Shown: positions 10,878 through 55,337, counted from the first letter of the stretch. The stretch is 64,000 bases of DNA from Cladosporium halotolerans (GCF_011745625.1 NW_027191507.1:1-64000), one strand, 5' to 3'. The notes: a model not told the origin generated them from the letters alone. Program-made: numbers and translations.

Positions 10878-11894
10878 TCAGCATCCATCCTCACAGAATT
10901 TAAGAGTCAAGCGAAACTCACGCCTCGCTGTTACACCAGTCCCATCCCCTTCGCCTTCGACAAACACGGGCTGGGTGGAAGCCGCTTCCCAGGACTGCCT
11001 ATATCGCTCCGCCCATCCTTGCACGTAGATGTGCCGTGCTGCATCGCCGGTCGATATCCGTCTATTCATGTTAAAAGTCAAGAGCCGATCGAGGAGGTCC
11101 AAGGAAGCTTGGGAAGCGTGGGGATACACCTCACGCCACGGCCGTTTCTCTCTCAATGGGAGCATCTTCCGTATGTATTCAATGCTTTTGACGGAGTATC
11201 CAGGCTCCAAATCTTCGTCCGTTGGAGAGCCTAGTACGGCGAAAATGCAATCTAGTTGGTGCACGTAGCCCTGACCTGGGAACAGGACTCTCCTTCCCAA
11301 CATCTCGGCGAGGACGCAACCGCTGGACCAGACGTCCGCAGCTTTGCCGTACCTGGAAAGCATGACTTCCGGAGCCCGATACCAGCGCGTTGCGACGTAT
11401 TCCGTTAGCCTGCTGCGTCTCTTTTCACGCGTTGTTTCCGCCCGAGCCAACCCGAAGTCACATATCTTCAAATCGCAATTTTCCGCAACCAGCAAGTTGT
11501 CCGGCTTAATATCGCGATGAATAATGCCAGCCGAGTGAATCGCGTGCAGCCCGCACAGCATCTGATGCGTGAGGTAGGAAATCTGTGCATCCGAGAGAAG
11601 GAACTTTTGAATCACCTGCGTCAAGTTGTACGGCATTGCTTCCTGAACCAGACACGCTTCCGAAAGCCTGTGGAAGCTACACGGCCTCGCAGAGTCCAGT
11701 AGCCTCACGATGTTGCAATGTTGGAGATGTTGTAGGATCCGAATCTCGCTCAACGTTCGACGACACACCAAAGGATTGTCCAGCTGCCGAATCACTTTGA
11801 TCGCGACCTTGTTTTGGAATCCTCTTGGGGTGGCTTGATAGACCGAACCGTACGCACCCCTTCCCAGCAGCTGATGCACATCGTAACGCTCCAT
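10878..11894 (-). CDS. MAP kinase, Fus3/Kss1 (ERK)-like, divergent and intronless
   Basis: GRGAYGSV, VAIKVI, RTLSEIRIL, HRDIKPDNLL, KICDFGLAR, LTEYVATRWYRAPE (TEY loop), DVWSSGC, LDLLDRLLTFN. Likely start MERYDV at 11894. Confidence 0.92.
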   Translation of the reverse strand: MERYDVHQLLGRGAYGSVYQATPRGFQNKVAIKVIRQLDNPLVCRRTLSEIRILQHLQHCNIVRLLDSARPCSFHRLSEACLVQEAMPYNLTQVIQKFLLSDAQISYLTHQMLCGLHAIHSAGIIHRDIKPDNLLVAENCDLKICDFGLARAETTREKRRSRLTEYVATRWYRAPEVMLSRYGKAADVWSSGCVLAEMLGRRVLFPGQGYVHQLDCIFAVLGSPTDEDLEPGYSVKSIEYIRKMLPLREKRPWREVYPHASQASLDLLDRLLTFNMNRRISTGDAARHIYVQGWAERYRQSWEAASTQPVFVEGEGDGTGVTARREFRLTLKFCEDGC

Positions 11895-12498
11895 CAGATC
11901 GTCATGTCGAGCGTGGTGAGGCCGGGCCGAGGAGAAAGAAGGGGTCGTTGCTGTTCGATCGGCTTGTGAGGGCGGGCAAATGACGCGATGCATCAGTGCG
12001 AGGTGACAGGACAAATTCGGATGAGACCAGCAGATGTGAACAAGATTGAACCGACGAGCGCTCCTGCAGTACTTTTTGATGCAATCTTATGGACTCCGAC
12101 CGCCTTGGTCGATGCCGTCAATGCGGTGAGGCGTTGGTCAAGCAAACTCCGCGTAACCGGCTCCTTTCTCACCTTCCTTGTTGGCCTCCCTTCTTGCTTT
12201 GTTTCATCACTTCCCTTCTCGCTTCCCTCCATCATCACCTTTCTTCCTCGCCTCCCTTCTTCGCCTCCCTTCCTCGCTTTCTGACAGGCCCGAATTTCTA
12301 CCATTCGGGCCGCCACAACCGGCGCTTAACAAACAACGCACCTCGGAGGCCCTTGGCACGAGCTCTGTCAGAAAGCTGCGAAGGAGCCAAGGCCGCATAT
12401 ATCTGTCCGTCTGGGCCTCTCTGTCAGATTCAGTCGCGCGAATTCCTCACCTCTCTGAGACAAAGGCTGTCCAATCGACCAACGGGCCCAAGGTCAGC

Positions 12499-15623: not shown

Positions 15624-18600
15624 CTACGACATACATACCTCTGCCGCTTCAATGCTTGAGCTCTTGTATCTCTCATTGAGAGAGAATGAAGTCCACGTCG
15701 AGCGGCCCACGCTGGAGGTATCGATTGTGTCGCACGGGCTCGCAGGGACAGCCTCACTCGTAGAACCTCCGAGCGTATCCTCAATCTCCGCATACTTGAC
15801 GCTCCCGTGAGTGTCAGGGATGGGAGCTTGTCTTGGCGCACTCGCTGGAGGTGGGAGTAAGACGCTGTGCTCCCTGCTGAGCCTTCGCACGGACCTCGGC
15901 ACACAGAGTCCGGGCGGCACGAGCGCGGTCTCCGCCTCGATGGCGGCACCTTGAGCCGCCATCATATCGCGCCTCCAGTATTCGGTGCGCGGAATGCTCC
16001 AGCTTGCTTGGGGCTCCCACGGCACGGAAAGCCTGTTACTCAGGCAGTGACTGAACGTCAAAGCGCCTTCGCTATTGCGGCGAGAGCGACTGCCCTCCTT
16101 TGGCCAGCACGACCGCATCGATGGGTGCAGAGCGGAAACGACCGATGAGCCTGACCCTTCCGTCCTTGCACGCTTCCCAATCCCTTTCGTGACGGGGCTT
16201 GGAGGCGTTCGAGAAACGCGCTGTGGGAGTGGTGAACGGTGCGGGTCGACGAGCAATCTCGGGAGACCACCGATCGGGTAGCCGTGCGCGAGGTGACCAG
16301 TTGAGGGCGCGAAGAACAGCTGGATGGAGGATGGCTTGCACATCGAGCGATCCAAGCAGATCCTCACCGCGGGCCGCTGAAAGATGCCCTGGCCGATCAT
16401 GGTCTCGATTCTTTCGACGGTGACGCTGACCCTAGTCGCGATCTGCGCCGAGTCTGCTGCAGGACGGATCTCGAAGTACGGCTCAAAGGCGACGCCGACG
16501 AACTGATCTCGCAGGATGCGCCCGAACCCCTTGATCATGTCGATGTCCTCCTCGAAACGGCAAGCTATGCTTCCGCTCACAGCGTCAACGTCGTCGTCTA
16601 GCGCAAATACCCCTTCAGTCTTCAGGTAGAAAGAGGTCGCGACCAGCCGGTGGGCCGTCCTCCTGGCCACCTCTCGTTCTTGCGGCTTGCCCAGCACGTC
16701 CCGCACAGAGGCTTGCAGCTGCCTGAGCGAGCTGTGATCATCGTGGTTTGGGGGCTCGTGTTCCGGGCCCAGGTCCGGGTTCAGTCTGAGGAGGCCGTGT
16801 CCCTTGGCGTGGGGCTGCGCTTGGTTGATCGCGGATTTGAACTCCCGCCATGTCCTCTCCGCTGCCAGCACGCTGTCTTCCCTGACGTGACGACGTCGCG
16901 CAAAGGGCAGCAGCCTTGACCTGATCGTCCTTGCATCCGACTGGGGATCGAACCCGCGTACCATCTCGGCTTGGAGCCCGGCCACGACCCTCCTCCGGTT
17001 CTGACCTGTGCCGATTGACAGGCAAACCGCGGACGGGTACGATTCTGGCCAAATGCGGCGGACTTCGTCCGCGGCGACGGTGACGGGGTTGCTGTCGTAT
17101 ACTTCACTGCTGTCAAATCGCCGGTGGCCGATGCTCACGGGCTTGAAGCTGGAAGCTTCTGCCATCGCTGCTGCGACGGCTTGACACGTCCGCGGTCCGG
17201 CGTCAGGGTCGTCCGAGGTTACGAGGGTGTATTCTCGCTCTTCTTCCGACGTAGGCCGCCTGTAGCTGGCGAGCAATACCTTCCGGCGGTCGGCTCCTTC
17301 GCCGGAGACCAATGCAATCCTTACATCGGGCGCAAATTGGCCCGCATCGCCAAAGAACTCGCGGTGGCCGGTGAAGGCATCTCTGAGCGCGCCTTGTAAT
17401 GCGGAGGTCTTTGCTTTTCGTTCACTGACGATCATTCGGGCCATCCTGTCGACGACGGAGCCGCCGTGGCCGCCGCCGATTCCGTCTGCGTAGCCGTGAT
17501 CGCACGTGGCCAAAAACATGTCGAGGCACTGCTTTGAATGGAGCGACCTCCCGTTGTCAGCGACACAGCGATCAGGCCACCTGTGCCGGCACCAACGATG
17601 AGGTCGAAGAGCCTTTGCACGGGGACATGGTGCCCAAGGGCCTGCTCGATTGCCCGGAGCGCCTCCAGCTGAACGATCCCGCGCACGCCCCCGCCGTCGA
17701 GACTGAGCGCGCAGGCTCCAGCTTCGGGCGATTTGACGCTGAACGTTGCAGGCTCCTCCCACCGAGCGTCGGCACAGTGGAGTGGGCACCGGTCAACAAC
17801 CAGCGACAGCTCGCGCTGGCGCCCGCAAGCGCGTGCACACGTCTCGCACAGCACATGACCGCATGGCAAGGCGCACTGGGGGGTCTCGATCAGGCACGAC
17901 AGACACGTGGAATGGCTCCGTATCGCCACCACCGATGGTCCAAGGCTACCGTAGAACTCGTCGATGGACTCCGAGTGGAGGTCCCAGGCGATGCGGTGGT
18001 CCGAGGTTGTCGCACCGGTGCGCTCCCGCCTGTACAAGAAATCGATTTGCAACTGAGAAATGGCCTCCTTGAGCTGCCTCTTCCACCGGCCCGCAAAGTC
18101 AAGGCCCACCGGGGAGACATAGCCGCGGCCGGTAGTCGACGCGATGATGCCTCGGTGATCTTGGTGTCCTTTGACGCCATGACGAGCCCGCGACATGACG
18201 CAGCGACGCGTGCCGTCGGCACTCGCGTGCGCGCACATTGCATGGGACTCCAGGTAATTGTCGACGGCCCGCGCGAAGAATTCCTCGTACGGGGCGCAAA
18301 CTATCTCTAGACGCCCCTTTCGATATTTCGCCCAATCCAGCAGGATGCAGGATGCTACGAAGGGCCCCATCCGCTCTAGCAGGCGTCGCAGTCCACTCCG
18401 GTCGCCACGGCAGGAGCGCTGGACGGCAAGACACAGCTGCAGGATATGGTCGCCGAAGTCGTTTGGGATCGGGTTTCGCGCCAGAGAGACCTGTAGGAAG
18501 TCAAAAGGGAGGTCGAGATGCGAAGTGAAATGATCAAAGCCGCTCTGCAAGTACTTTCCCAGCTCCGCCCCGTCGCTCAAAACGCGCGCGCGGCTCTTCG

Positions 18601-19714
18601 CCTCAAAAGACCTTGCGCAACACTGGCTGATCAGCCCGCGAAGCTGCGAGACTTGCTCTCGCATCCGGTTGATTTGCGAACCCGTCGGCAGTCGAATAAC
18701 CTTGAAGGAGCTGTAGTAACAAAGGACGAGATCTTCCACGGAACATACGTCCCTACCGAGCTCACGCCAACGCTCAGCCAGCGCTCGGAAACGCGGCACA
18801 CCCTCTGCGTGATCGATGGCACCTCGCACCGTGGAGAGCAAGGCCTGCGTGGCCGAATCGGCGTTCCACTGGTCCGCGGCAAGGGCAGCATCGCTGCAGT
18901 TCAGCACCACCACGCAGTGGGGCAGGGTCGGCTGGTTGATTGATCTCTCCAGTGCTGCGGCGCCCCAGTCAAGCAGCTTGGAGAGAACCGAGGATTGAAA
19001 GGTTTTTGGATTGCGCAGGACGAAAACCACACAGTCGGAGAAGGTGTACAGAATCCTGGGATACAGCCTGGTCACCGCGAACTCTCGCTGCCGAGACTCT
19101 TCCGTGGTCGCCCATTCTATCGAGTGTGTTCGTGCCGATGGCTCAGCTTGCTGTTCGCCAGTACCCGGCGCTGGGTTCCGCTGTCGCGACCGTGACCCAA
19201 GCGGAATCTTCTCGCCTCCCTCGAAGCCCTCGCAGTCAATGTACATGACAGGGTGGCGATCGCCGACGCTGGCAGGGTCGGAGTACAGATGCACGTCGCC
19301 GGAAGTGGGAATACTGTCGTCAGCGACATTCCCAGCGACCGGAGATGGAAAGCCTCTGCGTACATGCTCTGCAATCCCGAGGGAGATGAGCAATTTGATG
19401 AGGGTGGATTTGCCCGCGTTTGTGACACAGATGAAGGAGACAAGGCGGGGGTATTGCAGCGGCGCCGAGTCAGGTCTGCCCAGGCTTGCTGCGCAGAGGA
19501 TCTCGTAGCGACCGTAGTCCTCCAGCACCGGTCTCCCATATCTGTCGCGAACGACACCGAACCATTTGGACGTTTGATCTTTTTCGTGCAATCGTTCGAC
19601 GACGTCGCTGGTGTTGGCCGTGTCGAAAACGCTATCGATTTTTCGAGCAACCATGGGCTCTATTTGCTCATGTGGTGTACCGTCTCTGCCTCCCTTGCCC
19701 GGCTTATGGGGCAC
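15624..19714 (-). CDS. Patatin-like protein with an N-terminal P-loop GTPase-like domain and a RING-like finger; lipase motifs degenerate; frameshift near 17535
   Basis: ORF 17432-19714 has NAGKSTLIKLL, PTSGDVHLY, DCEG, CLSCL...LPCGHVLCETC...CPLH, LSLDGGGVRG and FDLIVGAGTGG. The patatin C-half continues in ORF 15624-17789 from KQCLDMF (SNPV, CLSIGTG, LLRLNP). Confidence 0.82.
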
Positions 19715-20377
19715 TTGTCGCTGCCAACAGTCGCTACAAATGTGTCAGAATTTCCACTTCGACCACCTTACAAATGCACGGCCAGAATTTACGGCCAGTG
19801 ACTTTTCGCCGAGCTTACCCGCAATACGTGCAATAGCATTTTGCGCAATACCACAATGGGCTTCTCGAGCCCATGCAGTCTGTCCCCTCACAGACGAGGG
19901 GAATGCCCTCAAGGTCCTCGCTCGAGCTGGAAGTCGAACAGCTCGTTCGACGCTTGGCAGACATGGCCTGCATACCCTCGTGTGGATGATCCATATCTTC
20001 TCAATGCAGGCAAGGAAGAGTTCGCGGTCTGTGTCTTTGTTGGACTCGTTTGGGTTTTATGGGAGATCCGTCGGCTTCCGATGACAGCATCGAGGCTCAA
20101 CGCCAGTCACTTGGCGGGTCTAATCGTTGCAAAAGCCTGGCGATTCGCAAGACTCCTGTGGGCCGAATTCAAAAGTAGCACCGCAGGCGCCTCCAAAAGA
20201 AACACGGACGTTACTGTGCCTTTCCCTCGGCAATCCATCAAGGTCACGAAAGCTGAGTGATTGAATGACACGGAATGGCAGCGATCGAGACTTTGGATCG
20301 CGAGTTACTCATTCTGCGCTATTTCCTGTTTTTTCAATATGGTAGTCGTCGCGTCTGCATCAGAATCTGTCTGACGC

Positions 20378-21043
20378 TTAGTTTGTGAATCCCTTTCTCT
20401 CGTCCTTGACGACCTCAACTTTGCTTGCTCGACCCTTGACTCTTTTCCTTTTCGTGAGTGGACCCGAAGACTGGCTGGACGGGTTTGATAGCGGCGAAAG
20501 CCCTTCTTGCTTCATTCGGATTGTGTTCACAACACATGCCACTCGCGCCGTCCACTGCTGAAATCCATCGGACTGGTCCTCAAGCTCTTTGACTTGTCTA
20601 CGATCACAACAAGGGAGGTCAGCAACGCCTGCAGGGGTCGGCACATGAGACTGACCTCTTTAGGTCGTCCATCTGTACCTTCAAGCCTCGAATATCTTCA
20701 CGGAGCCTTTCGATGTGTGAGCCCTGGCTCCGCCAGACTTGAGCTCCCCTAGTGTGGACCAAAAGACGTACTGACACATTTCCTGTTGCGTAGGTTTGTC
20801 CTCCTTCACGTCACGTACAGATGGTACCGTGTCGCCTTCCCATGTTGGCTCGAGATCGGCAAGATTGGATATGCCTGGAAAGTCATGGTAGGCACTGAAG
20901 TCGATGCCTCGCGCAAAAGATAGTGTATCTCCGACGCTCTGTTGATCCGCAGTCGGAATCGTCTGCAGAGGTGGAAATAGATCCTCAGACCACGATCCAA
21001 AGTCGTGCTCGACTGACTGATATGCGGAAGACGGTAAGTCCAT
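20378..21043 (-). CDS. Small coiled-coil protein, 3 exons (introns 20707-20771 and 20598-20655)
   Basis: GTACGT...AAG and GTCAGT...GCTGAC...TAG introns join an open frame: QQEMCQLREDIRGLKVQMDDLKRQVKELEDQSDGFQQW, ending in a basic NLS-like TKRKRVK. Confidence 0.65.
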
Positions 21044-21594
21044 TGCTGTAGTGGGAGAAAGCTGCTCAAGTCCACGGGCTTCAAAAAAAATGCATGTAGC
21101 CCTTTGGTATTGTCGTCTGTATATAAACAGATTGCGTTCTACATGCCACTACCCATCTTCCAAAATAGAACAAGAGAGATGCCTGTGCAAAAGATTCTTA
21201 TAGCAATGTAAGCACATGATTTTGCTTTGCAAGTCTCACCATTGTTTCGCATCCGTTTCACATTCGATCCAATCAATAATCTGAGGCTTTAAAAAGGTCA
21301 AGGTGCAGAAGGGATAGAGTGGAGCGAGCGCCAAGTGGAAGGGGCAGACCCGGGGTCCAAGACGCGTAAAATGGCTTGAGTTTACAAGTTTTGTCATGGC
21401 CCCCTTACTTGAGCACTTCCTCTTTATATATCACAGGGCACAGTCCGTGGCCGCATGCGTGTCAATGTCCACAGTTGTGGCTGTCCACATGATAGAAAAG
21501 CACGGTCAGTCTTGGGGCGAGCTGCAAAAAATCAAGCAGCGGTCGATCGAGGAATCCAATTGATGATCGCGTCCCCGGCCAACCTGGAGAAATC

Positions 21595-24500
21595 ATGGGG
21601 GGCTGCCGTCACAGCGACTGGGTGGAGCTGTCCGCCACAACGCGTCACTTACGTCTTTCTGATCCCACCCGCCTGCATCGCCTCATTGGAGAGTTGGAAA
21701 GGGCTGCCAAACAACATCCCCATATCGTGCTTTGTCTTGGCAAAGAAGAGAGGCGAAAGTTGATCAGCCAGATTTTGCTAGGCCAAAGGGTCACTAGGCC
21801 TTCTTCAACCAGAAAGTCTCCCGCTGGTGGGATTTCGAGCATTGTTTCGGACAAATCGCAGGCCGGCGTTGACCATCCGATCTTTTTCGCCCACACTCGG
21901 GTCGAAGGTGCGATCCCGACCAGCAGAGGATACCATTGTCACGAGACAAGGTCCGCACGTAATGGGTGGCCCGCATCGCAGCAAAGTGCTCACGACGCCA
22001 TCCTGACAAAGCTCTTCTTTCCCTTCTCGAATCTCATATGCATGTTCGTTGAAGACTTCGGTGGATTCGATGCCGTATTGGACAGGCTCAACGCCTGGAC
22101 CTCCACTCCACGTGCAACGGACCTTGCTGACTTCGCCCGTGAGGCCCTCCCCAGAGTCTGCCTCATTACGTCGGGCCCCCTGAGTGCCGAAGCCCAGATC
22201 CGAGAGGAAGCAGCGCACTCACGGCTGGATAGGATTGATTTCCACGATCATTTTTCGAATGTCCAGATCCTCCGCTTCGACACAAATAGCCTCGAAGAAT
22301 TTCACGAAGACTTTCGTCTCTTGCTGCTCAACGAGCTGACAACTTCCAACCTCATGAAGGAGAGACATCGAGTGTCGTTCAGCGCCAGGCATCTGGCCGA
22401 GTTTTTCTCGCAAGCAATGTTACACGTCGGGACTGATCCCACTAAAAAGTTTAGTTTTATATCCGCTTCACGGAAGCACCGATCTGTGCCACCATCCTAC
22501 TTCGATCAGGTCGGCGTTGTCTTGCGCAGCAGAGCCAAGCACGGCGTCGGCTTCGACAAGGTTGCCTCGCTGATCAGCTCGTGCTTGCTGTTGGATGCGT
22601 ATCCGCGCGGTTCTCATGGTGAGTTACCAGCCGTGCAACACAAGCGCTGGCCGCTTCCTGCTGACTGAATTAGCTTTCGATGCTTGCGACATTTTCCAAG
22701 AGCTCTACGCCGAGCCTCTGGGCACGGCCCTTCAATCTAACTATGCAGCCCTCTCGCACCCAGGCGAGCGAAGGCTGCAAAACACCATCTGCAAAGATGG
22801 TCGTTTCAAGATACTCGTGAAATTTGTCACAATGGCTCGCCGAAGCGACGGGACGAGGGATTGGGCTCTCCGTCAGCACAAGAATAACCTGTCGTCACTG
22901 TGGCTTTGCGACACTCGCAAGCTGATGGTGTCCGCCCAGATCTGTGTCTCCTGCCTGGCTGGCTCTCCGCATCATGTCCTCGAGTGCGGGCACATTCTGT
23001 GCGACCAGTGCGTCGGCCGGTTCGGCAGACCGTGGGTGGGAGAAGAATACCGTTATGTCGTAGAGGAGTGCGTGATCTGCCGTTTTCCCGTCGGCTTGGT
23101 GGTTCACTTGAAGCCGCCGACTGCGAGACCGCGCATACTCACAATAGATGGCGGTGGCGTACGCGGCGTCGCGCCCTTGGAGGTCTTGAACAAGCTGCAA
23201 AAAGATCTCGGCCCTCGAGCTCGGGTGCAAGATTTCTTCGACCTCGCCTTTGGCGTGAGTGCCGGTACGTCCAACTTGGGTCGCATGCCGCATCTTCCGA
23301 TGCCTCTTCGGTTTCTGATGCAGCCTGCTAACTTCCATCTAGGCGGTCTCGTTATCCTGGGCATGTTCGCGAAGCAGTGGAGCGTCGAGCACTGCACCAG
23401 GTCGTTCTGCGAAGTCGCACAACAAATATTCGCACCGTCGAGGGGGCGGATGAAAGGCGTGCTCGGTCTAGCCCACACTCTGACATGCTGCCTGCTACAC
23501 GATGGACTGTATGGCAGCGAAATGGTAAATTCGTTACTTCAAGAGAGCTTCGGTGCGGAGACTCGGGTGCTCAGTCCTGCTCCGACAAGGGTATCACGCC
23601 ATAAGTATGCGGTAACCACGACGAAGGTCGATGACACTGCAGCCTTCGTCTTCTCAAACTACAGCGTGGCTGTGTCAGACGACCAGAGCCATCCGCTGAA
23701 AGCGGTGACGGGAAGTATCAATGGTTCCAAACGCCAGTCTCGATCTTCTCTGTCGACGTATCACCGACACAGAAGCAGTCGCGCGGACGAAAGTCCATTC
23801 TTGTGGAAAGTGTGAGTATTAGCCAGAGCCTCCCACCAACGGCACCAACGCTAACGCCGAATGTCCAGAGCGAAAGCAACGTCCGCAGCTCCACCGTGCG
23901 TTGTACACGATCCGCCCCGACGGGAGATCATTTGAGTCATCACGGCTGACCAACTTCTGTAGTTTTTTCGAGCCGGTCGCGATGGGTGACGACGGAGTCC
24001 ACCGGGACGGGGGTTACCACAATCTTAACAACACACACATCGCCATAGCAGATAGCTTGAAAATCTGGCCCGGCACGTTGCCCGCTGTAATCCTTTCTCT
24101 AGGCACCGGGCAGACTCCTCGCGGCCATGTCCAAAAGCAAGCCCCCCTTCGGGGAAAGATCCAGAACGGCACGCTGGCCAGGCTTCTACGATGGTCCCGA
24201 GCGAGGTTGATGGAGGCTATAGATGGCGAAGAGGTCCACGAACGAGTGTGCGCCTCCTTGGACGACACCGGGCGTACGACATACTTTAGAATGAACCCCG
24301 AATTTCCAGATGGCCTGCCGCGTTTGGATGATGTTGAACAAATTCAGCACATCCGCGAACACGTCAAGTCCTACCCATCTAAAGAGATGCGGACTGAATT
24401 CAAAATCGCAATAATCGCCTCCTCCTTTTTCTTCGAGCTCTGCCGCAGTCCAAAGCATGGCCGGGCTGCCACGTATCTCTGCGAAGGAACCATTCGCATC

Positions 24501-24968
24501 AGAGGGGATCCCATTCTCGTCCTTGAGTTGCTTCTCTCCTTGGACTATCCGTCTGTAGAGTTTACGAGCGAAGAAGACGAATTGGGCGAGGTGTGCTTGG
24601 CAGGTGCGATCTGTCCGACTTGCAAGATGTTCGCTCAGCATGTACAATTTCACGTCCGTGACCGAGACAAACCCCACACCATCTACATCAAGCTCGATAA
24701 AGACGTAAGGTACCCAATATCCGGCTTCCCTCAGACAATGTCGTGGTTTTGCGAGCAACAGGGCCTATTCGACGCGTTCTCCACGGGTTCCTCGGAACGG
24801 GAGCGTTGTGTCTGCGATCGTTTGCCAGAGCTGCCCAAATTGGATGATCGAAAACGGAGAGCTTCATCCCAACAGCTTACGAGACAAGCCTCCAATCACC
24901 GCAAAGCCAAAAAGGTAAAGTACGACGAGCTCAATCCTGCTCCTGATGTGGGCTGCAGCGGGCAGTGA
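21595..24968 (+). CDS. Patatin-like phospholipase, 5 exons (introns 22619-22673, 23265-23342, 23812-23868, 23896-23962); catalytic motifs intact
   Basis: RING-like CVSCL...HVLECGHILCDQC...CVIC, ILTIDGGGVRG, FDLAFGVSAGG (GxSxG), AKATSAAP, RDGGY (catalytic Asp), LSLGTG, YFRMNP. All splice sites are canonical. Confidence 0.9.
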
Positions 24969-48764: not shown

Positions 48765-49568
48765 CTACCGGATCGCACCGTCCGACGTGGTGGCAGCGTC
48801 CACCGTGCAGGGTCCCGGTAATAGCAGCATGCGTCCTTCTTCGCTCGCTTTGCAGCATCGAGACTCTGTCAAGCTCCAGAACCGTTTCTGCTCACCACCC
48901 ACTGTCTCTGCCCACTGCTCTAGAATCTGTTGATTTTGCGGGCTGATGTCTTCCTTCGACTGCTCCGGTTGCCGCACACTCTCGTCGTGATAATCGACCA
49001 CGAAATACCGTCGATGCGCTTTCGATTGAAAAATCGTCTGTACGTATACGGCGTGCCAGTGTTCCGGGTCATCGGCAATAGATTTCCATGCATGTTCCTT
49101 GTAGCAATGTTTTCTGATCTCATCTCGACTCATTGAGATCTTAGTACATCCGGATTCGTCGCATTGAAATCCTCGCATCGGCGACCCGAGCCAGTCGAGC
49201 GGTGCTTGTAGTGACGGCGGTGTTGTGACTTGTGCCGGCTCTAGCAACTCGCAAGCTCCGTATTTCTTCTCTATTGCCGACCTCTCGGAGCTTCGGACTT
49301 TATGTTGTAGCCTTAGATGTGTTGCCAGATTCCGGACGGCATACCCGTGATAACGGCAGACTAGCACTTTATAGTGAGAGTCGTAGTAGAGCCATTCATC
49401 AGCGTTTGCGGCAGCGATCTCTAAGCCGTCTTCCAAGCCAATCGCGCTATCGGATGCGGTTGTGCTATGCTCCGTGCACGAGTTGCTTTGTGCTAGACTC
49501 CACGACCGTTGTCGAACGGGCGTCGACGTTTGCGTGCCCCAGCTCGCAAGTGAGCTGTCATCGCTCAT
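48765..49568 (-). CDS. DUF3505 (OrsD-like) zinc-finger protein related to the N-terminus of the adjacent helicase; probably truncated near 48910
   Basis: YKVLVCRYHGYAV...THLRLQH...GFQC...C...IRKHCYKEHAW...VQTIF...RYFVV parallels HRILICTSCQYAI...THLKEYH...GLRC...C...MRKHCKEKHGW...CQRFF...KYFEV in the helicase. Confidence 0.7.
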   Translation of the reverse strand: MSDDSSLASWGTQTSTPVRQRSWSLAQSNSCTEHSTTASDSAIGLEDGLEIAAANADEWLYYDSHYKVLVCRYHGYAVRNLATHLRLQHKVRSSERSAIEKKYGACELLEPAQVTTPPSLQAPLDWLGSPMRGFQCDESGCTKISMSRDEIRKHCYKEHAWKSIADDPEHWHAVYVQTIFQSKAHRRYFVVDYHDESVRQPEQSKEDISPQNQQILEQWAETVGGEQKRFWSLTESRCCKASEEGRMLLLPGPCTVDAATTSDGAIR

Positions 49569-50241
49569 TTTGTGCTGTTGTTGTTATTTTGTAGAAGCCG
49601 TTTTCAGCTTGTCAAATCGCCGCTTCGCTATAGCACTATATGTTGTACGAAATGAATATGCATCAAGTGTCTAATGTGGGCGCCTGAGCAGATGTGAATG
49701 TCTCACGCGTGAAGACGCGAGCGGTCGTGCTGCGCGGTCGTGCTGCGCCAGTCGCACTGACCCTGAATTCCACGCCCTCCCAATCTTCCATGCTTGTACT
49801 GTCAGCAATGTATCGTTCACTACACGACGGTCAACGCTCCTAAAATCAGTTAAAGTTGCTCGCAGACAGAACACGACACGGAGAAAATTATAGTGCTAGT
49901 TTGAGCGTTATGCGATCGATTTTGCTTGAAGGCACATTTTGCTATGTACGAACGCCAAAACAATGCTTTTGCGCCGACCTTCGCGCTCAAAATATGGTGC
50001 CGCACTCGGTTCCCTGCTTCGTTAGCGCCCATACTTTATAGATGATCTACAGAGCATCGTAGCAATACTTAGTCTCCATGACTTTGCTATAATTTCATTC
50101 ATGATGAAAAGACAACAACTTGGGGATCACTTCTTGGGGAAGACTACAAAATGATTGTAAGCGGAAGTTCAGTAGCTACTTACGGTTAGCGCCGCTTTGG
50201 GGTAAGCTGGGGATCAGTGTTCCCCTCCGCTGCTTTTTGGT

Positions 50242-50381: not shown

Positions 50382-53300
50382 TTATATTGATCGTAGGGCT
50401 AAACCTGCCACTCGCACTGCCTGAATTGCACTCCCCCCTCCGAATCTACTCTCCTCTCCTAACCAGTCAAAATAATCCTCGATATTCTCAAACTTTCGCT
50501 CGAATTGCTCGTGTAGCCATCCTGGCCCCTCAACACTCTCGAATACCCCGAAGCAGAGCGGGAGTACGATGTCTCGGTGTTCACAATCCATGCCACCTCC
50601 ACCTCCTAGCTCTGCTTGTTGACAGATCGATTGCGGATTCAGGCACCAGAAGCAGCTCGTGTATGCCTGTAGCCATTTCCGCCCTCGTCCTTCGTGTCGT
50701 CGTCTGGCTTCGTTCCTGTGTTCAAACACCTCGAATCGCCGTGGGCACGTTGAGAAAGCATGGTCCCAGTTCTGTCTGACTACCCTGCAGAGCAAGCATG
50801 TTCCTTTCACGCTCGCCAGGTCGAGCCGATACTGTGAGAGTTCTGTGTGAGCCCGTAGCCGCTCTTGCTGGATGAGCCCGAGCCCTGTGTGTGGCGTGTC
50901 CTCTTGGACGCTCTCGACCGGGTTGATGGGATCCTGGTGGGCCACCTTGCAGATGTCACACGGTATATCTTCTGGCATACACCATCTTCGATGTCGGGAG
51001 ATATCCAGGTAATCGCTTAACGAGGTCCGGTAGCATTGCTCGCTCTGCAGGTATCGGTGCACCGCCTGTTTGTCCTGGCGCTTTCGAAGCGATACGTCCT
51101 GTCTGTGGTTGCTCGCGTTCTGTAAATCCAGTGGATCGTCATCCATAGCCTTGGGCTGCCAGGTCGCTGGGAGCAACACCATCGAGTACGCACGCTTTCC
51201 GTCTCGCCCTGCTCGACCTGACTCTTGGGCGAAGATGACTAGGGATTCCGGCTCGTCTACATTCATGACGAGTCGGACGTGAGGGTAGTCGAACCCTTCA
51301 GCGAGAGCGGTGGTGGCGACGATATAAGGCGTGCCTGAAGTCTCAATCCATCCATCGAGTATCTCTTTCTTCTCTGCCGGTGTCCCACTCTCTGCCGTGT
51401 ACGCATTGCAGCCGAGTAGCTCTGCCAGATCGTCTGCATCTTTGCACGTCCGAACGTACAGAACGATCTTGTCACAGGCGTGGTCGAAGAACCCCGATTC
51501 TGTCCACGCATCTTTTGCCTCGATTGCAGCCTGTTTGAGAAGGCTTCCGTTGTGGGCGTCGATTTTTCGCACCATGTAGAAAATGTTCAGTCGATTACTA
51601 GGCGCCCTGACAACAGTAGGACGGTGCAGATAGTTTCTCTCCTCGAACTCTGCTCGCATGGATGGCGGAAGAGTGGCTGTCAAATAGACAAACTGAGTTC
51701 TCAAGCTCCGGATGGTTGTTAGCTCGACCATACTTGGTCGATACTCAGCCGCTGTTACAGTCAGATGGCACTCGTCAATCACGATCCGATCGAGCTTTTG
51801 CTCTGCTATTAGCCTCCGAGCATACTTGATGAAATCCTTGGACGAGGCGGCCTCAGCGCTGATGAGTACTAGGGCGGCCTCCCGGCTCTCGCCTGGACGC
51901 CACTCTAGATGGTCGATGCTCATCTCTTTTATACGCCGGATCATATCTCCATAGAGCGAGACGAGCGGTACTACGAGTACTGTTATTCCAGCGTCAGGCA
52001 GAGTACACGGAAGCATAAAGAGCAAGCTCTTCCCGGCTCCTGTGGGAAGGATGGCGACAACCTGCTCGGTCCAAGACATGATTGTGGTGAGAGCTTGCTC
52101 CTGCTCGGCAGATTTCCAGCCTGCTTCCCTGTTGCCGTATAGCTTCTTCACTCCTCCTAGGAGAGCTTCGGTGGACCAAGGTTTCCGAGGACGGTAGATG
52201 CCCATAGCCACCCGTTTCGCCAATCGAGACTCTTGCTCGGCTCTCCCACGTTTCTTTTGCTTGAGCATCATGTCTAACCCCCAGAAGTCCTGCCACAGCG
52301 TCGAAGCCTGTAACCCCATCCGGACTTTTCCATCCCACAAGTTGGCAAATACTGCTCCGGCCTGGTTGGCGTACGCCCGGTTCACCGTCCGCGTCTTGTG
52401 GTTGCGCTGTTCCGTCATGCTTCGGATTGTCGGGTCGATCTCTTCCGCATCTTCGTCGCCTTCGTCAGGGTCGAAACATTCGATCTGGCTGGCGAATTTG
52501 GTCTTGACGATGGCCACTGTGATCTGCCTCCAGTTAGCGACGCGAAGCCGTGGCACGCATGCCCGAACACATGCTTCTTCCAGGTAGCGGCTTAGATGAC
52601 CCTCCGGCCACACTTTTCCATTCTTCTCCCAAAGGTACGGAGAGAGCAACGATCCAGGCGATGTCTGTCGGAAGAATCTCTCCCGTAGTGGCAATACGTA
52701 GACGATGTAATCGAGCAGTAGCTCTGCGATCGGATTAGCGAGGAACCGGACGTTCTCTTTGTAGTCACTCGTTTGTTGCTGGCCCTTATGGTACTGGATG
52801 TGTACCATTATACGGTCGAAGCGAATGACGATGGATCGTCGCCGCTGCGCGTTGCGATATGTCATCGAGAAGAATTCGCTCTCTCGCACAGGCTGTCCCC
52901 CGCTGATGTGTACGAGAACGCTCAATCGCTTCAGAAACTCTTGCACGGTGGCTTTGTAACCAGCCATTGCGCTCTCCCTCCATGCCCATCCGCTGGGTGA
53001 TCGATTGTCTTCGGTAAGGAAGATGCGAGACAGTTGATCCGATCGTTCGATTGCGTTCGTCAGTGCTCTCCCTGTACCGCCGAGGGTCGTTGCGTTATCT
53101 CTGTGCTGAGTAAAACTCCAACCGACGGTCTCGACGTTGACACCATCTTTGAGGAACCGAGGGCTTATTCGGCGGAGACTCTTGAGACCCAGCATCAAGT
53201 CGTCGTAAAGAAGCTGATAACACCCCTGGTACTCAGATGCAAGCAAAGATGGGATCTGATCCATCCGTAGTTCGGTGTCCTCGTATGTCAGCACCTCACT

Positions 53301-54848
53301 TTCGTCCCAAGACGCTTCATGGGTGCCAACGCTCGCACCCGACACCTTGAACAGCAACAGGCGCCATCTGAGGATCTCTCCCATCGGTGTCTCTACGGTC
53401 TGCTGGAGGTACTGGTCGCAGTAAGATCTCACAAGCTCTAGCGTCTTCCCACAGCCTTGTTGTTCCTTCAAGGCGCTATCGTAGAACACTAGCAACTGTA
53501 CGACCCAGATAATGGCCGAGAGACTGCTATTAAAGTTTCCGGGTTCCATCCAGCCGTTTGTCGATGGTTTGATGCTCAGCATGGCGCAGAAGCTCAACAG
53601 AGATGATCCATACCGCCGAGCGCCAGTCGTGTGGCAGATGAGAAGCGTCCTTGGCTCCAGAAGTCGTCTCTTCAATTCCTTTTCCTCTTTATCACCTTCC
53701 TCGTTGTCCTCTTCGACAGGGCTCGCTCGTCTTCGCTGTGCGATCTGGCAGATATCTTGCCATACCGCCAATTGCTCCTCTGTCGCCTCGATGGTGTCTT
53801 CCGGCCTCTGCATGTCGTCGTCATCTTCAGCTATTGCGCTAAAATGGTACTCGTCAGGAGCGACAACTCTGCTGAAGTATGACACGAACCGAAGCGCTAT
53901 TCCGAAATAGCTCACAAGACTCTTCGGCCCTTTGTGTGGATCGAATGGTCTGGTCTTGCCTGTCAGATCGACTTGCGAGGGCTGGAAGCGGCTGAGGACG
54001 ACTCGGCATTGATAAGTCAGCATGCAGTCAGGTCCGTCAAAGCATAGCCTGTGGGCATCCTGTAGTAATGATTGCATCGCATCGATGATGGTACGGAGAT
54101 TGCTCTCCTCTCCTGACGGGGGCACAGCGATTGCTGTTCGAATTTGGTCTTTTCTGAGACCGCATATATGGTCGGCAATGCCTGTCTCTCTTAGCCAAGG
54201 GACTACGGCGGAGACATGGTCGTCAAACCCATGTACTCGGTTCGCATCGTCAGCAGCATCGCGCTGTGCTTGTTGGACGTCGTCTTCTTGGGCGCGGAAA
54301 AACTCATGCTTCTGGGACGTTTGCCTCTCGGTGATTGCACCCTCATCCTGACTTGCCACTTCGAAGTATTTCTGCCAACTGTTGACCTTAAAGAATCGCT
54401 GACACGCACGGTTTTGAGTCCAGATCTTGTTACGCGCATGGAGCTGTTTCGTGCGAACATCCCCTCCCCGCTTTTGCTGATTCGCCCATCCATGTTTCTC
54501 CTTGCAATGTTTCCGCATCAAACGTAAGTTGCGACACACATAGACGCAGGCAATATTCCTGTTATCCGCCCAATCACATCTGAGCCCGTCAAAATAAACT
54601 GGGAGGATCGGAACGGGAGGATCGTTTGGAGTTGGATATACGACGTCTTCATGGACACTCGCCAGAGCGGAGCAACTATCGACCTTGGCAACGAAGGCGT
54701 GACGTCGTTCAAGAGTAAGACGACGGTGGTACTCTTTGAGATGGGTCGTTAAGTGCGATGGCACAATCGCGTATTGACAACTTGTGCATATCAAGATCCT
54801 GTGTTTGTTGTTTATTTCGAAAAGACGGGTGAAATCCACTTCTGCCAT
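50382..54848 (-). CDS. Telomere-linked helicase (TLH)-type protein: DUF3505 zinc fingers, putative tyrosine-recombinase domain, RecQ-type SF2 helicase, Cys-rich C-terminus
   Basis: Intronless 1488-aa ORF with helicase motifs LPTGAGKS, VVPLVSL, IVIDECH, LTAT, IVLYVR, VATTALAEGFD, QESGRAGRDG and the RecQ Zn cluster CYR...C...CDIC. Confidence 0.93.
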   Translation of the reverse strand: MAEVDFTRLFEINNKHRILICTSCQYAIVPSHLTTHLKEYHRRLTLERRHAFVAKVDSCSALASVHEDVVYPTPNDPPVPILPVYFDGLRCDWADNRNIACVYVCRNLRLMRKHCKEKHGWANQQKRGGDVRTKQLHARNKIWTQNRACQRFFKVNSWQKYFEVASQDEGAITERQTSQKHEFFRAQEDDVQQAQRDAADDANRVHGFDDHVSAVVPWLRETGIADHICGLRKDQIRTAIAVPPSGEESNLRTIIDAMQSLLQDAHRLCFDGPDCMLTYQCRVVLSRFQPSQVDLTGKTRPFDPHKGPKSLVSYFGIALRFVSYFSRVVAPDEYHFSAIAEDDDDMQRPEDTIEATEEQLAVWQDICQIAQRRRASPVEEDNEEGDKEEKELKRRLLEPRTLLICHTTGARRYGSSLLSFCAMLSIKPSTNGWMEPGNFNSSLSAIIWVVQLLVFYDSALKEQQGCGKTLELVRSYCDQYLQQTVETPMGEILRWRLLLFKVSGASVGTHEASWDESEVLTYEDTELRMDQIPSLLASEYQGCYQLLYDDLMLGLKSLRRISPRFLKDGVNVETVGWSFTQHRDNATTLGGTGRALTNAIERSDQLSRIFLTEDNRSPSGWAWRESAMAGYKATVQEFLKRLSVLVHISGGQPVRESEFFSMTYRNAQRRRSIVIRFDRIMVHIQYHKGQQQTSDYKENVRFLANPIAELLLDYIVYVLPLRERFFRQTSPGSLLSPYLWEKNGKVWPEGHLSRYLEEACVRACVPRLRVANWRQITVAIVKTKFASQIECFDPDEGDEDAEEIDPTIRSMTEQRNHKTRTVNRAYANQAGAVFANLWDGKVRMGLQASTLWQDFWGLDMMLKQKKRGRAEQESRLAKRVAMGIYRPRKPWSTEALLGGVKKLYGNREAGWKSAEQEQALTTIMSWTEQVVAILPTGAGKSLLFMLPCTLPDAGITVLVVPLVSLYGDMIRRIKEMSIDHLEWRPGESREAALVLISAEAASSKDFIKYARRLIAEQKLDRIVIDECHLTVTAAEYRPSMVELTTIRSLRTQFVYLTATLPPSMRAEFEERNYLHRPTVVRAPSNRLNIFYMVRKIDAHNGSLLKQAAIEAKDAWTESGFFDHACDKIVLYVRTCKDADDLAELLGCNAYTAESGTPAEKKEILDGWIETSGTPYIVATTALAEGFDYPHVRLVMNVDEPESLVIFAQESGRAGRDGKRAYSMVLLPATWQPKAMDDDPLDLQNASNHRQDVSLRKRQDKQAVHRYLQSEQCYRTSLSDYLDISRHRRWCMPEDIPCDICKVAHQDPINPVESVQEDTPHTGLGLIQQERLRAHTELSQYRLDLASVKGTCLLCRVVRQNWDHAFSTCPRRFEVFEHRNEARRRHEGRGRKWLQAYTSCFWCLNPQSICQQAELGGGGGMDCEHRDIVLPLCFGVFESVEGPGWLHEQFERKFENIEDYFDWLGEESRFGGGSAIQAVRVAGLALRSI

Positions 54849-55337
54849 GGTTGATCGAGCAAGTAAGACTTACGACTGCCATTTTTCAGAAACGATAGGA
54901 GCCCTCGTATATCAATAATTTTGTTGCTCCCTGGCAACCTGCCTCCTGTGACTAAAATGCATGTGCCTATGCGTAGACGTGCTTTCATGCCGCAAGAAGA
55001 CGCTCACTCATTCGCAGGTGCTAACGCCAGCTGCGGGGCAGACTTCCAATTTTGTCGCTGGCTGCGTTTTTGGCGTACATATCACCGTCATATTGTCGCA
55101 CCATTCCTGCAAATAAACAAACGAAACGCAGCGAGCAAAAAGAATCATGCTGTCGTATCTTGTTGTTTCAATTTTGGCCAATTACGAGGTTATTAAAGCA
55201 AAGGTCCCGGGTCAGGCAAAGCAAAGGTTTCGGCTTAGCCTTACTTACCCTAACCCTTAATTTATTAGGCATTTCAAAGGTCTCGACTCGAAACCTTTGT
55301 CTTCTAGTGTTAGGGATCTAGGAATTAAGTATTATCC

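Follow-up and report, generated by a model that had tools for sequence, protein, structure and literature searches.

Guanylate-binding proteins (GBPs) and atlastins are membrane-acting large GTPases that self-associate through their GTPase domain when nucleotide-bound, and CapV-type patatins are membrane-destroying effectors. Among filamentous ascomycetes, the patatin proteins PLP-1 of Neurospora, HET-Z1 of Podospora and VIC-2 of Cryphonectria are linked to cell death. A partner that lacks a catalytic residue can also regulate or pair with a live one, as ABHD5/CGI-58 does with the patatin lipase ATGL and as occurs between SMG8 and SMG9. Here we analyzed a 64,000-nucleotide stretch of DNA from Cladosporium halotolerans (GCF_011745625.1 NW_027191507.1:1-64000; hereafter the window), in which two divergent genes, one on the minus strand (15624-19994; the minus gene) and one on the plus strand (21595-24968; the plus gene), each join a GBP/atlastin-like domain to a patatin domain. 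We interpret them, with a probability of about 0.6, as paralogues of a single Pezizomycotina family that diverged long ago and are separated by a small third gene, their complementary dead domains being traits of two subfamilies that lie side by side in the Cladosporium lineage.

Both genes encode a GBP/atlastin-like GTPase domain, a helical region, a RING-like finger, a patatin domain and a C-terminal domain, and the common architecture of N-domain, RING-like finger and patatin domain described in the initial annotation is seen in both translations. To place the N-domain of the minus gene (18575-19654), residues 1-360 from the Met at 19654 were folded with AlphaFold2 (AF2) using 67 aligned relatives, giving a predicted local distance difference test score (pLDDT) of 86.8 and a predicted template modelling score of 0.89. 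Foldseek ranked GBP1 first for this model (E 9.5e-7). The VIA structural Z was 19.5 for GBP5 (7e5a), 19.2 for GBP1 (2b8w; root-mean-square deviation 3.8 over 247 residues), 19.1 for atlastin-1 (4idp), 17.5 for RNF112 (9jjv), 17.4 for SMG9 and 15.9 for Sey1p (5ca8), with the GBP, atlastin and RNF112 alignments spanning 240-258 residues; the small GTPases Era, HflX and YsxC scored 12.5-13.5, well under the GBP/atlastin values. The translation contains a Walker A motif, CVTNAGKST (19403-19429), followed by PTSG (19298-19309), DCEG (19226-19237) and LNCSD (18890-18904). The minus N-domain is, as judged from its modelled fold, a GBP/atlastin-type large GTPase domain. A likeness to such GTPases, which the initial annotation put forward for checking, is borne out by structure (Z about 19) and has no counterpart in sequence-level Pfam matching: neither N-domain had a Pfam family at E<=0.1, the Pfam GBP family included, and the N-domains of relatives gave MMR_HSR1 matches around the P-loop that scored 18-19 bits, under the cut-off of 21.9. 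Likeness to GBPs, atlastins, Sey1p and RNF112 comprises the fold (Z 15.9-19.5), a P-loop with a D-x-E-G third motif and a helical region after it, and in vertebrate RNF112 a RING finger is likewise joined to a GBP-like GTPase. The family differs from GBPs and atlastins, however, in its sequence (10-13% identity, no Pfam GBP match, guanine-specificity motif not evident), in the fusion of the GTPase domain to a RING-like finger, a patatin domain and an Ig-like domain, and in having a whole plus-type subfamily with a shortened P-loop that lacks Ser/Thr.

The plus gene consists of five exons (21595-22618, 22674-23264, 23343-23811, 23869-23895 and 23963-24968) that encode 1038 residues, and its N-domain together with the start of the helical region spans 21595-22617. 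The AF2 fold covers the minus N-domain only. The two N-domains are homologous by profile-profile comparison: a profile of 109 plus-type sequences aligned with a profile of minus-type sequences at an hhalign probability of 99.8% (E 5.6e-27, 259 columns), in the same register as the alignment originally drawn by eye. In this register GxTNAGKST lies opposite a loop two residues shorter and without GK[S/T], and DCEG lies opposite a stretch in which its glycine is missing; the plus gene itself reads LCLGKEERRKL at the P-loop place (21730-21762) and FFAHTRVEG at the DxxG place (21883-21909). BLASTP of the two whole products (E 6e-26, 22% identity) covered plus residues 219-757 only, starting in the helical region and extending through the patatin domain. 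The helical region of the minus gene (approximately 17930-18574) is defined by family alignment only. It is followed by the RING-like finger, at 17735-17929 in the minus gene (CLSC..CGH..C..C at 17837-17905, CPLH at 17777-17788) and at 22943-23080 in the plus gene (pattern at 22943-23011, CVIC at 23069-23080), and both copies conform to C-x2-C-x11-C-x-H-x2-C-x2-C ... C-x2-[CH]. All matches for this finger were sub-threshold, with 19.7 bits for Pfam zf-RING_5 in the plus gene (cut-off 27.9) and E-values of 0.002-0.03 for the family profile against the PDB (RNF141 0.0022, TRIM34 0.0098, TRAF6 0.02).

The patatin domain lies at 16989-17734 in the minus gene, where it has no nucleophile, and at 23147-24113 in the plus gene, where all catalytic motifs are present. 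The closest solved structures to the family patatin profile were CapV (E 8.3e-24) and iPLA2beta (E 7.1e-21). Against PF01734 (cut-off 27.7 bits) the minus frame scored 35.4 bits over the first 50 model positions only, full-length relatives scored 39.6-94.2 bits, and the plus exon piece, at 27.3 bits, fell just short because introns split the domain. The oxyanion-hole motif DGGGxRG is intact as DGGGVRG in both genes (17678-17698 in the minus gene). At the remaining sites the minus gene has GAGTG (17579-17593) where GxSxG is expected, AAAMAEAS (17151-17174) instead of ATSAAP, and FDSSEV (17100-17117) at the DGG site, and the plus gene reads GVSAG (23252-23266, with an intron directly after the motif), ATSAAP (23869-23895, a 27-nt micro-exon flanked by two short introns) and RDGGY (24003-24017). 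These translations agree with the initial annotation, which had listed NAGKST, PTSG and DCEG alongside GAGTG and FDSSEV for the minus copy, and intact GVSAG, ATSAAP and DGG with loss of GKS and DxxG for the plus copy. The plus gene thus has DGGGxRG, GxSxG, ATSAAP and DGG in common with CapV, the cyclic GMP-AMP-activated patatin phospholipase of the bacterial cyclic-oligonucleotide-based anti-phage signalling system (CBASS), and with iPLA2beta/PNPLA9. Unlike those systems, neither cyclic-nucleotide signalling genes nor ankyrin repeats are found here, and the minus-type clade lacks the nucleophile.

Comparison with the fungal patatin nucleotide-binding oligomerization domain-like receptors (NLRs) PLP-1, HET-Z1 and VIC-2 revealed a patatin domain and an occurrence in filamentous ascomycetes in common. 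In those proteins, however, the order is patatin, NB-ARC/NACHT, then TPR or other repeats, whereas here a GBP-like P-loop domain lies N-terminal to the patatin domain; no Pfam match to NB-ARC/NACHT or to repeats was obtained in either gene or in four relatives. The minus gene continues into a C-terminal helical and Ig-like beta-sandwich domain (16233-16988) that was modelled at pLDDT 86.7, had no Foldseek match at E<=1e-3 and reached a best VIA Z of 5.9 with the Sec63 unit of Brr2, a generic Ig/FN3-like sandwich. The GTPase-RING-patatin family is widespread in Pezizomycotina and annotated only as "FabD/lysophospholipase-like" or "hypothetical", in part as DUF8392, which is how Pfam 38.1 covers a portion of it. 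The patatin-TPR NLR encoded by ToxhAT has an architecture different from that of the window genes (PMC6737239). No account of a GBP-like GTPase-RING-patatin protein emerged from full-text literature searches, in which most papers were judged by their search entry and the opening of the abstract.

The state of the catalytic motifs was followed through the relatives of each gene; in what follows, P numbers denote protein matches, L numbers metagenome-contig loci and X1, X2, X3 and X6 sequencing runs. A word-based search with the minus protein yielded 167 proteins at E<=1e-5, and among the matches listed all named ones came from Pezizomycotina. Motifs were counted in the best 120 of the 167: [AS]GK[ST] occurred within the first 260 residues in 114, DCEG was nearly invariant, and the nucleophile elbow, readable in 64, was GxSxG in 25, GTGTG in 24, GTDFG in 12, GSGTG in 2 and GTNSG in 1. 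Those close relatives of the minus gene that could be read all lack the elbow serine (GTGTG, GSGTG, GAGTG or GSGSG). At the DGG site, FDSSEV of the minus gene keeps an aligned Asp with its glycines gone, and the orthologous FASNEM and FTSDGP have no Asp at that column. In a FastTree phylogeny of 112 long sequences (1050 columns, shorter matches excluded), GTGTG and GSGTG sequences formed one clade, whose named members are Dothideomycetes and which holds the window minus gene beside L001m, L003m (the minus-type orthologues of L001 and L003) and P0002; GTDFG sequences formed a second, separate clade of Xylariales. The serine was therefore lost at least twice. Members of the GTDFG clade, in which that sequence replaces GTSTG and the P-loop is intact, are P0059, P0065, P0069, P0071, P0072, P0075, P0076, P0083, P0084, P0094, P0095 and P0116. 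P0046 (GTGTG) groups next to P0055 (GTSTG) and may represent a third serine loss. Five short NCBI-named relatives (P0033, P0039, P0053, P0080 and P0109; 498-640 residues) end inside conserved stretches and may be truncated gene models; we do not claim them as natural GTPase-only forms.

The serine-less domain has nonetheless been kept. Across 24 sequences of the serine-less clade mean column identity was 54% with invariant elbow glycines, and the window and L001m are 62% identical across the patatin domain, compared with 67% for the GTPase domain and 32% for the tail. Relative to a second, approximately 90% identical version of the gene detected in X1 and X2, 24 of 33 changed codons were synonymous over codons 613-697 (24 against 9 non-synonymous, based solely on the 34 differences listed for 17566-17817), and the GAGTG glycines were retained. 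The ratio of non-synonymous to synonymous substitution rates gave no estimate for metagenome orthologues of this clade, as no pair had a dS of 0.05-1.2. The serine-less patatin domain is about as conserved as the live domains, and because a domain without its nucleophile is still conserved, the minus gene is on present sequence evidence a pseudo-lipase. Recent decay, with GxSxG intact in close orthologues of the minus copy, had been set beforehand as the test against the initial annotation; the close orthologues lack GxSxG.

The plus type showed the converse state. An exhaustive search returned 606 representatives at E<=1e-3 and 296 at E<=1e-10, and in a word-based search with the plus N-domain P0121 was the single relative among longer proteins. 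Of 143 aligned members, 6 have GK[ST] at the P-loop place; GxSxG is present in all 14 whose sequence extends as far as the elbow, and the subfamily formed one long-branch clade of 17 tips in the tree. The plus orthologues of L001 and L002 have GTSAG, ATSAAP or ATSAAAP, and DGG, and share the exon breaks and the ATSAAP micro-exon of the window gene. Judged by these motifs, the plus gene is a pseudo-GTPase, with a loop two residues shorter and without GK[S/T], and an intact Ser-Asp lipase dyad. Since each loss is old and subfamily-wide, the pattern is not one of reciprocal decay after a local duplication. A recent tandem duplication as the source of the pair was likewise considered and rejected, the products being 22% identical and lying in separate deep clades. 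Of the reciprocal loss first proposed, the complementary dead domains therefore stand, whereas complementary decay of a duplicate does not: the two genes belong to anciently separate subfamilies whose states are clade-wide.

These results suggest the following account of the family. Its proteins run from a B-box-like finger, which is optional, through a GBP/atlastin-type GTPase domain, a helical region and a RING-like finger to a CapV/iPLA2-like patatin domain and an Ig-like C-domain. The minus gene belongs to the Dothideomycete clade in which the GTPase motifs are kept, the patatin serine has become glycine, and ATSAAP and DGG have decayed; the plus gene belongs to a separate large subfamily with a short P-loop without GK[S/T] and an intact Ser-Asp dyad. 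By analogy with GBPs and atlastins, the N-domain would self-associate on a membrane in response to nucleotide and so position or switch the patatin domain, controlling when and where the latter encounters its lipid substrate. The dead domains would act as scaffolds or regulators, with the patatin domain of the serine-less clade as a binding or scaffold module and the plus-type N-domain as an interaction module independent of nucleotide. The two neighbouring genes may act jointly, a hetero-oligomer of both types being an attractive possibility.

Several points weigh against our interpretation of the pair. The motif counts were made with regular expressions, and the elbow was unreadable in 56 of the 120 minus-type proteins. 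The tree is unrooted, its root serving for display only, and the plus clade is given without its branch support. Motifs and fold alone are the basis for predicting that these proteins bind GTP, act as lipases and associate with membranes. The three-gene order is kept in related loci in which the plus N-domains are only 43-54% identical to that of the window, which could reflect selection for linkage as opposed to mere synteny; the search behind this comparison was limited to metagenome contigs, in which unlinked or more distant pairs are invisible.

To examine whether the minus gene is intact, its structure was compared with that of its orthologues. The gene corresponds to NCBI model WHR41_09228 (Cladosporium halotolerans), which its product matches at 100% over the aligned parts. 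It comprises exon 1 (19819-19994), an 85-nt GT-AG intron (19734-19818) and exon 2 (15624-19733), the last of which contains a frameshift; coding runs in two frames (17432-19744 and 15624-17792) that join near 17533, and reading through the frameshift gives a product of approximately 1400 residues. The ATG at 19994 lies upstream of the first of these frames, and exon 1 encodes a B-box-like finger that the intron interrupts. This N-terminal Cys/His finger (approximately 19705-19892) was recognized from the sequence and from the alignment of family N-termini; profile matches of the minus-type finger to Midline-1 B-boxes in the PDB were weak (E 0.42-0.83), and the relative P0080 carries the UniRef name 'B box-type domain-containing'. 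At the other end is a poorly conserved tail (15624-16232; 24-32% identity among orthologues). G+C content reaches 0.63 over 16001-18000, the C-terminal half of the minus gene, against 0.50-0.59 in the rest of the window. In P0279 (Cladosporium sp. NU13, g10324t3) the NCBI model runs from a minus-type orthologue, itself intact, into a MAP-kinase-like gene lying downstream and is probably a merged gene model; a kinase gene is present in the window at 10881-12086, on the same strand as the minus gene.

The frameshift, noted originally at about 17535, was placed by orthologue comparison at 17532-17533, where the window has two extra bases that are absent from all relatives compared. Orthologues read GGRSI[D/K]QC across the break. 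The NCBI model crosses this site with a 62-nt GT-AG "intron" (17486-17547) that removes 20 residues kept in all orthologues, and this is probably an annotation workaround that bridges the frameshift. Whether the frameshift is an assembly error or real recent decay is about evenly balanced. That the gene is intact in the living strain, with the two bases at 17532-33 and the G at 17526 being local assembly errors, has in our estimate a chance slightly under one half. In favor of an intact gene, the reading frame is otherwise open over approximately 1340 codons, and the extra bases are absent from L001m, L003m, P0279, P0002, the second version in X1 and X2 and an X6 loose end behind 17531. Contigs from the same strain also give no confirmation of the extra bases: in run X1 the window-identical contigs (0 differences, depth 26-29) end at 17515 and restart at 17536, and the sole contig spanning 17526 and 17533 lacks the two bases and has A at 17526 where the window has G. 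At 214.1, the depth of this spanning contig approximates that of the window-like contigs (about 26-28) plus that of the second version (188.6). A missing window-like contig proves little, however, as Logan contigs retain only the commoner branch of a bubble; the X1 contigs therefore do not settle the frameshift, and uncovered parts of the region in runs X3 and X6 carry no meaning.

The substitutions point the other way. The Walker A motif of the window copy begins with C, at a position occupied by G in 23 of 23 clade members (G76C), and the copy departs from clade-invariant or near-invariant residues at G76C, V107A and R177H, changes that look like relaxed constraint; the 97%-identical P0001 has the consensus at all three positions. 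That sister lineage (97% protein identity) instead carries a real 7-base deletion at 17994 that cuts the product to 584 residues, ahead of the RING-like finger. The deletion is present in P0001 and P0297, both from the European Nucleotide Archive, and in a contig of X6 (depth 6.5 of 11.7). The minus gene is therefore dispensable in this species group. The second version, which covers 17484-19367, 16228-16855 and 24078-24391 of the window in X1 and X2 and differs mostly at third codon positions, had a depth of about 188 in X1 (window-like about 27) and of about 300 in a dust metagenome (window-like about 5); it may be a contaminant, an abundant sister species or a mobile copy.

We also examined conservation of the neighbourhood. 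The two large genes had been described as head-to-head, which proved incorrect: a small minus-strand gene sits between them (about 20378-21148), so that they are divergent and not directly head-to-head. Its provisional exon model consists of two open reading frame (ORF) pieces (20681-21148 and 20378-20659), the second of which resembles a coiled coil followed by a basic KRKR stretch. No Pfam match was obtained for it, and its best Atlas score of 0.78 was uninformative. A scan of metagenome contigs with the clade alignment identified 80 loci, and in 36 of them the contig extends 2.9 kb or more upstream of the family gene. In 3 of these 36 (L001, L002 and L003) the opposite strand carries a plus-type gene, 2.1-2.4 kb from the Met equivalent to window position 19654, and the small intervening gene was found in the same three of the 80 loci only (tblastn E 4e-12 to 4e-14). 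These are the three loci closest to the window (minus N-domains 65-67% and plus N-domains 39-54% identical), and L001 is collinear with the window as far as the ABC-transporter gene (12.5-14.5 kb). A single intact ORF encodes the minus-type orthologue in L001 (1385 codons, GAGTG) and in L003 (1387 codons, GSGSG). Partnership was not kept beside serine-less genes across the clade, as 33 of the 36 informative loci have no partner. Within these metagenome contigs a partner accompanied 2 of the 9 serine-less loci readable at the elbow, and also L002, where the contig does not include the elbow; seven serine-less loci with 3-10 kb upstream (L007, L013, L014, L015, L018, L038 and L042) contained no second family gene anywhere on the contig. 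The pairing does recur, but only in the three closest loci, where the flanks are collinear too. The arrangement is real and limited to close relatives, and general synteny explains it as well as function does.

These data bear on the two-component module envisaged at the outset, in which a GTP-competent pseudo-lipase would sense or nucleate and then activate a pseudo-GTPase partner carrying the only working lipase, for immunity or cell death. We consider such a module unlikely. It would account for the complementarity of the dead and live domains and for a divergent order kept in L001-L003 despite protein identity of 43-67%. The fold matches of the minus N-domain include SMG9, the partner of SMG8, and solved members of the GBP/atlastin group pair through the G domain; ABHD5-ATGL and SMG8-SMG9 are nevertheless analogies only for the window pair, SMG9 (Z 17.4) being among its fold matches. 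CapV, the nearest solved structure to the patatin domain, is a defence effector. The partner is, however, present in only 3 of 36 informative loci and absent from the seven serine-less relatives with 3-10 kb upstream; the flanking genes are collinear too, and a third gene separates the pair. The serine-less clade is much smaller than the plus subfamily, most of whose members therefore work without such a neighbour. Finally, the supposed sensor is frameshifted in this assembly and, by a different lesion, in the sister lineage. Taken together, the earlier interpretation is partly supported: its sequence observations are confirmed and the functional module receives modest support.

A broader proposal is that the family forms an undescribed cell-autonomous defence or cell-death machinery of hetero-oligomers in filamentous ascomycetes, in which dead-lipase GTPases would license P-loop-dead members with a live, CapV-like lipase. 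The three-gene Cladosporium block would then be a linked split of sensor and executor, and the recurrent frameshifts a presence/absence polymorphism of the immune or incompatibility type. We regard this as improbable, and the common patatin domain is the only link to allorecognition proteins such as PLP-1. The weakest alternative, that a giant mobile element (Starship) carries the genes as cargo, is very improbable: patatin-like phospholipases (PLP, PF01734) are listed among recurrent conserved Starship cargo genes (PMC9156397), but the block is collinear with a related species, ordinary flanking genes included, and the 15 large window ORFs (smaller and intron-split genes were not scanned) contain no DUF3435 captain, DUF3723, ferric reductase or NLR by Pfam. 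Two minus-strand ORFs in the window, at 48768-49583 and 50385-54869, have an OrsD domain, and the larger (1495 codons) adds a DEAD/Helicase_C helicase core.

We therefore return to two old subfamilies of one Pezizomycotina family, lying side by side in the Cladosporium lineage, as the best account of this locus. The pairing in the window would matter only if the two proteins were shown to act together. The repeated, conserved pseudo-lipases and the large pseudo-GTPase subfamily offer a natural system for the role of dead catalytic domains in multidomain immune-like proteins.

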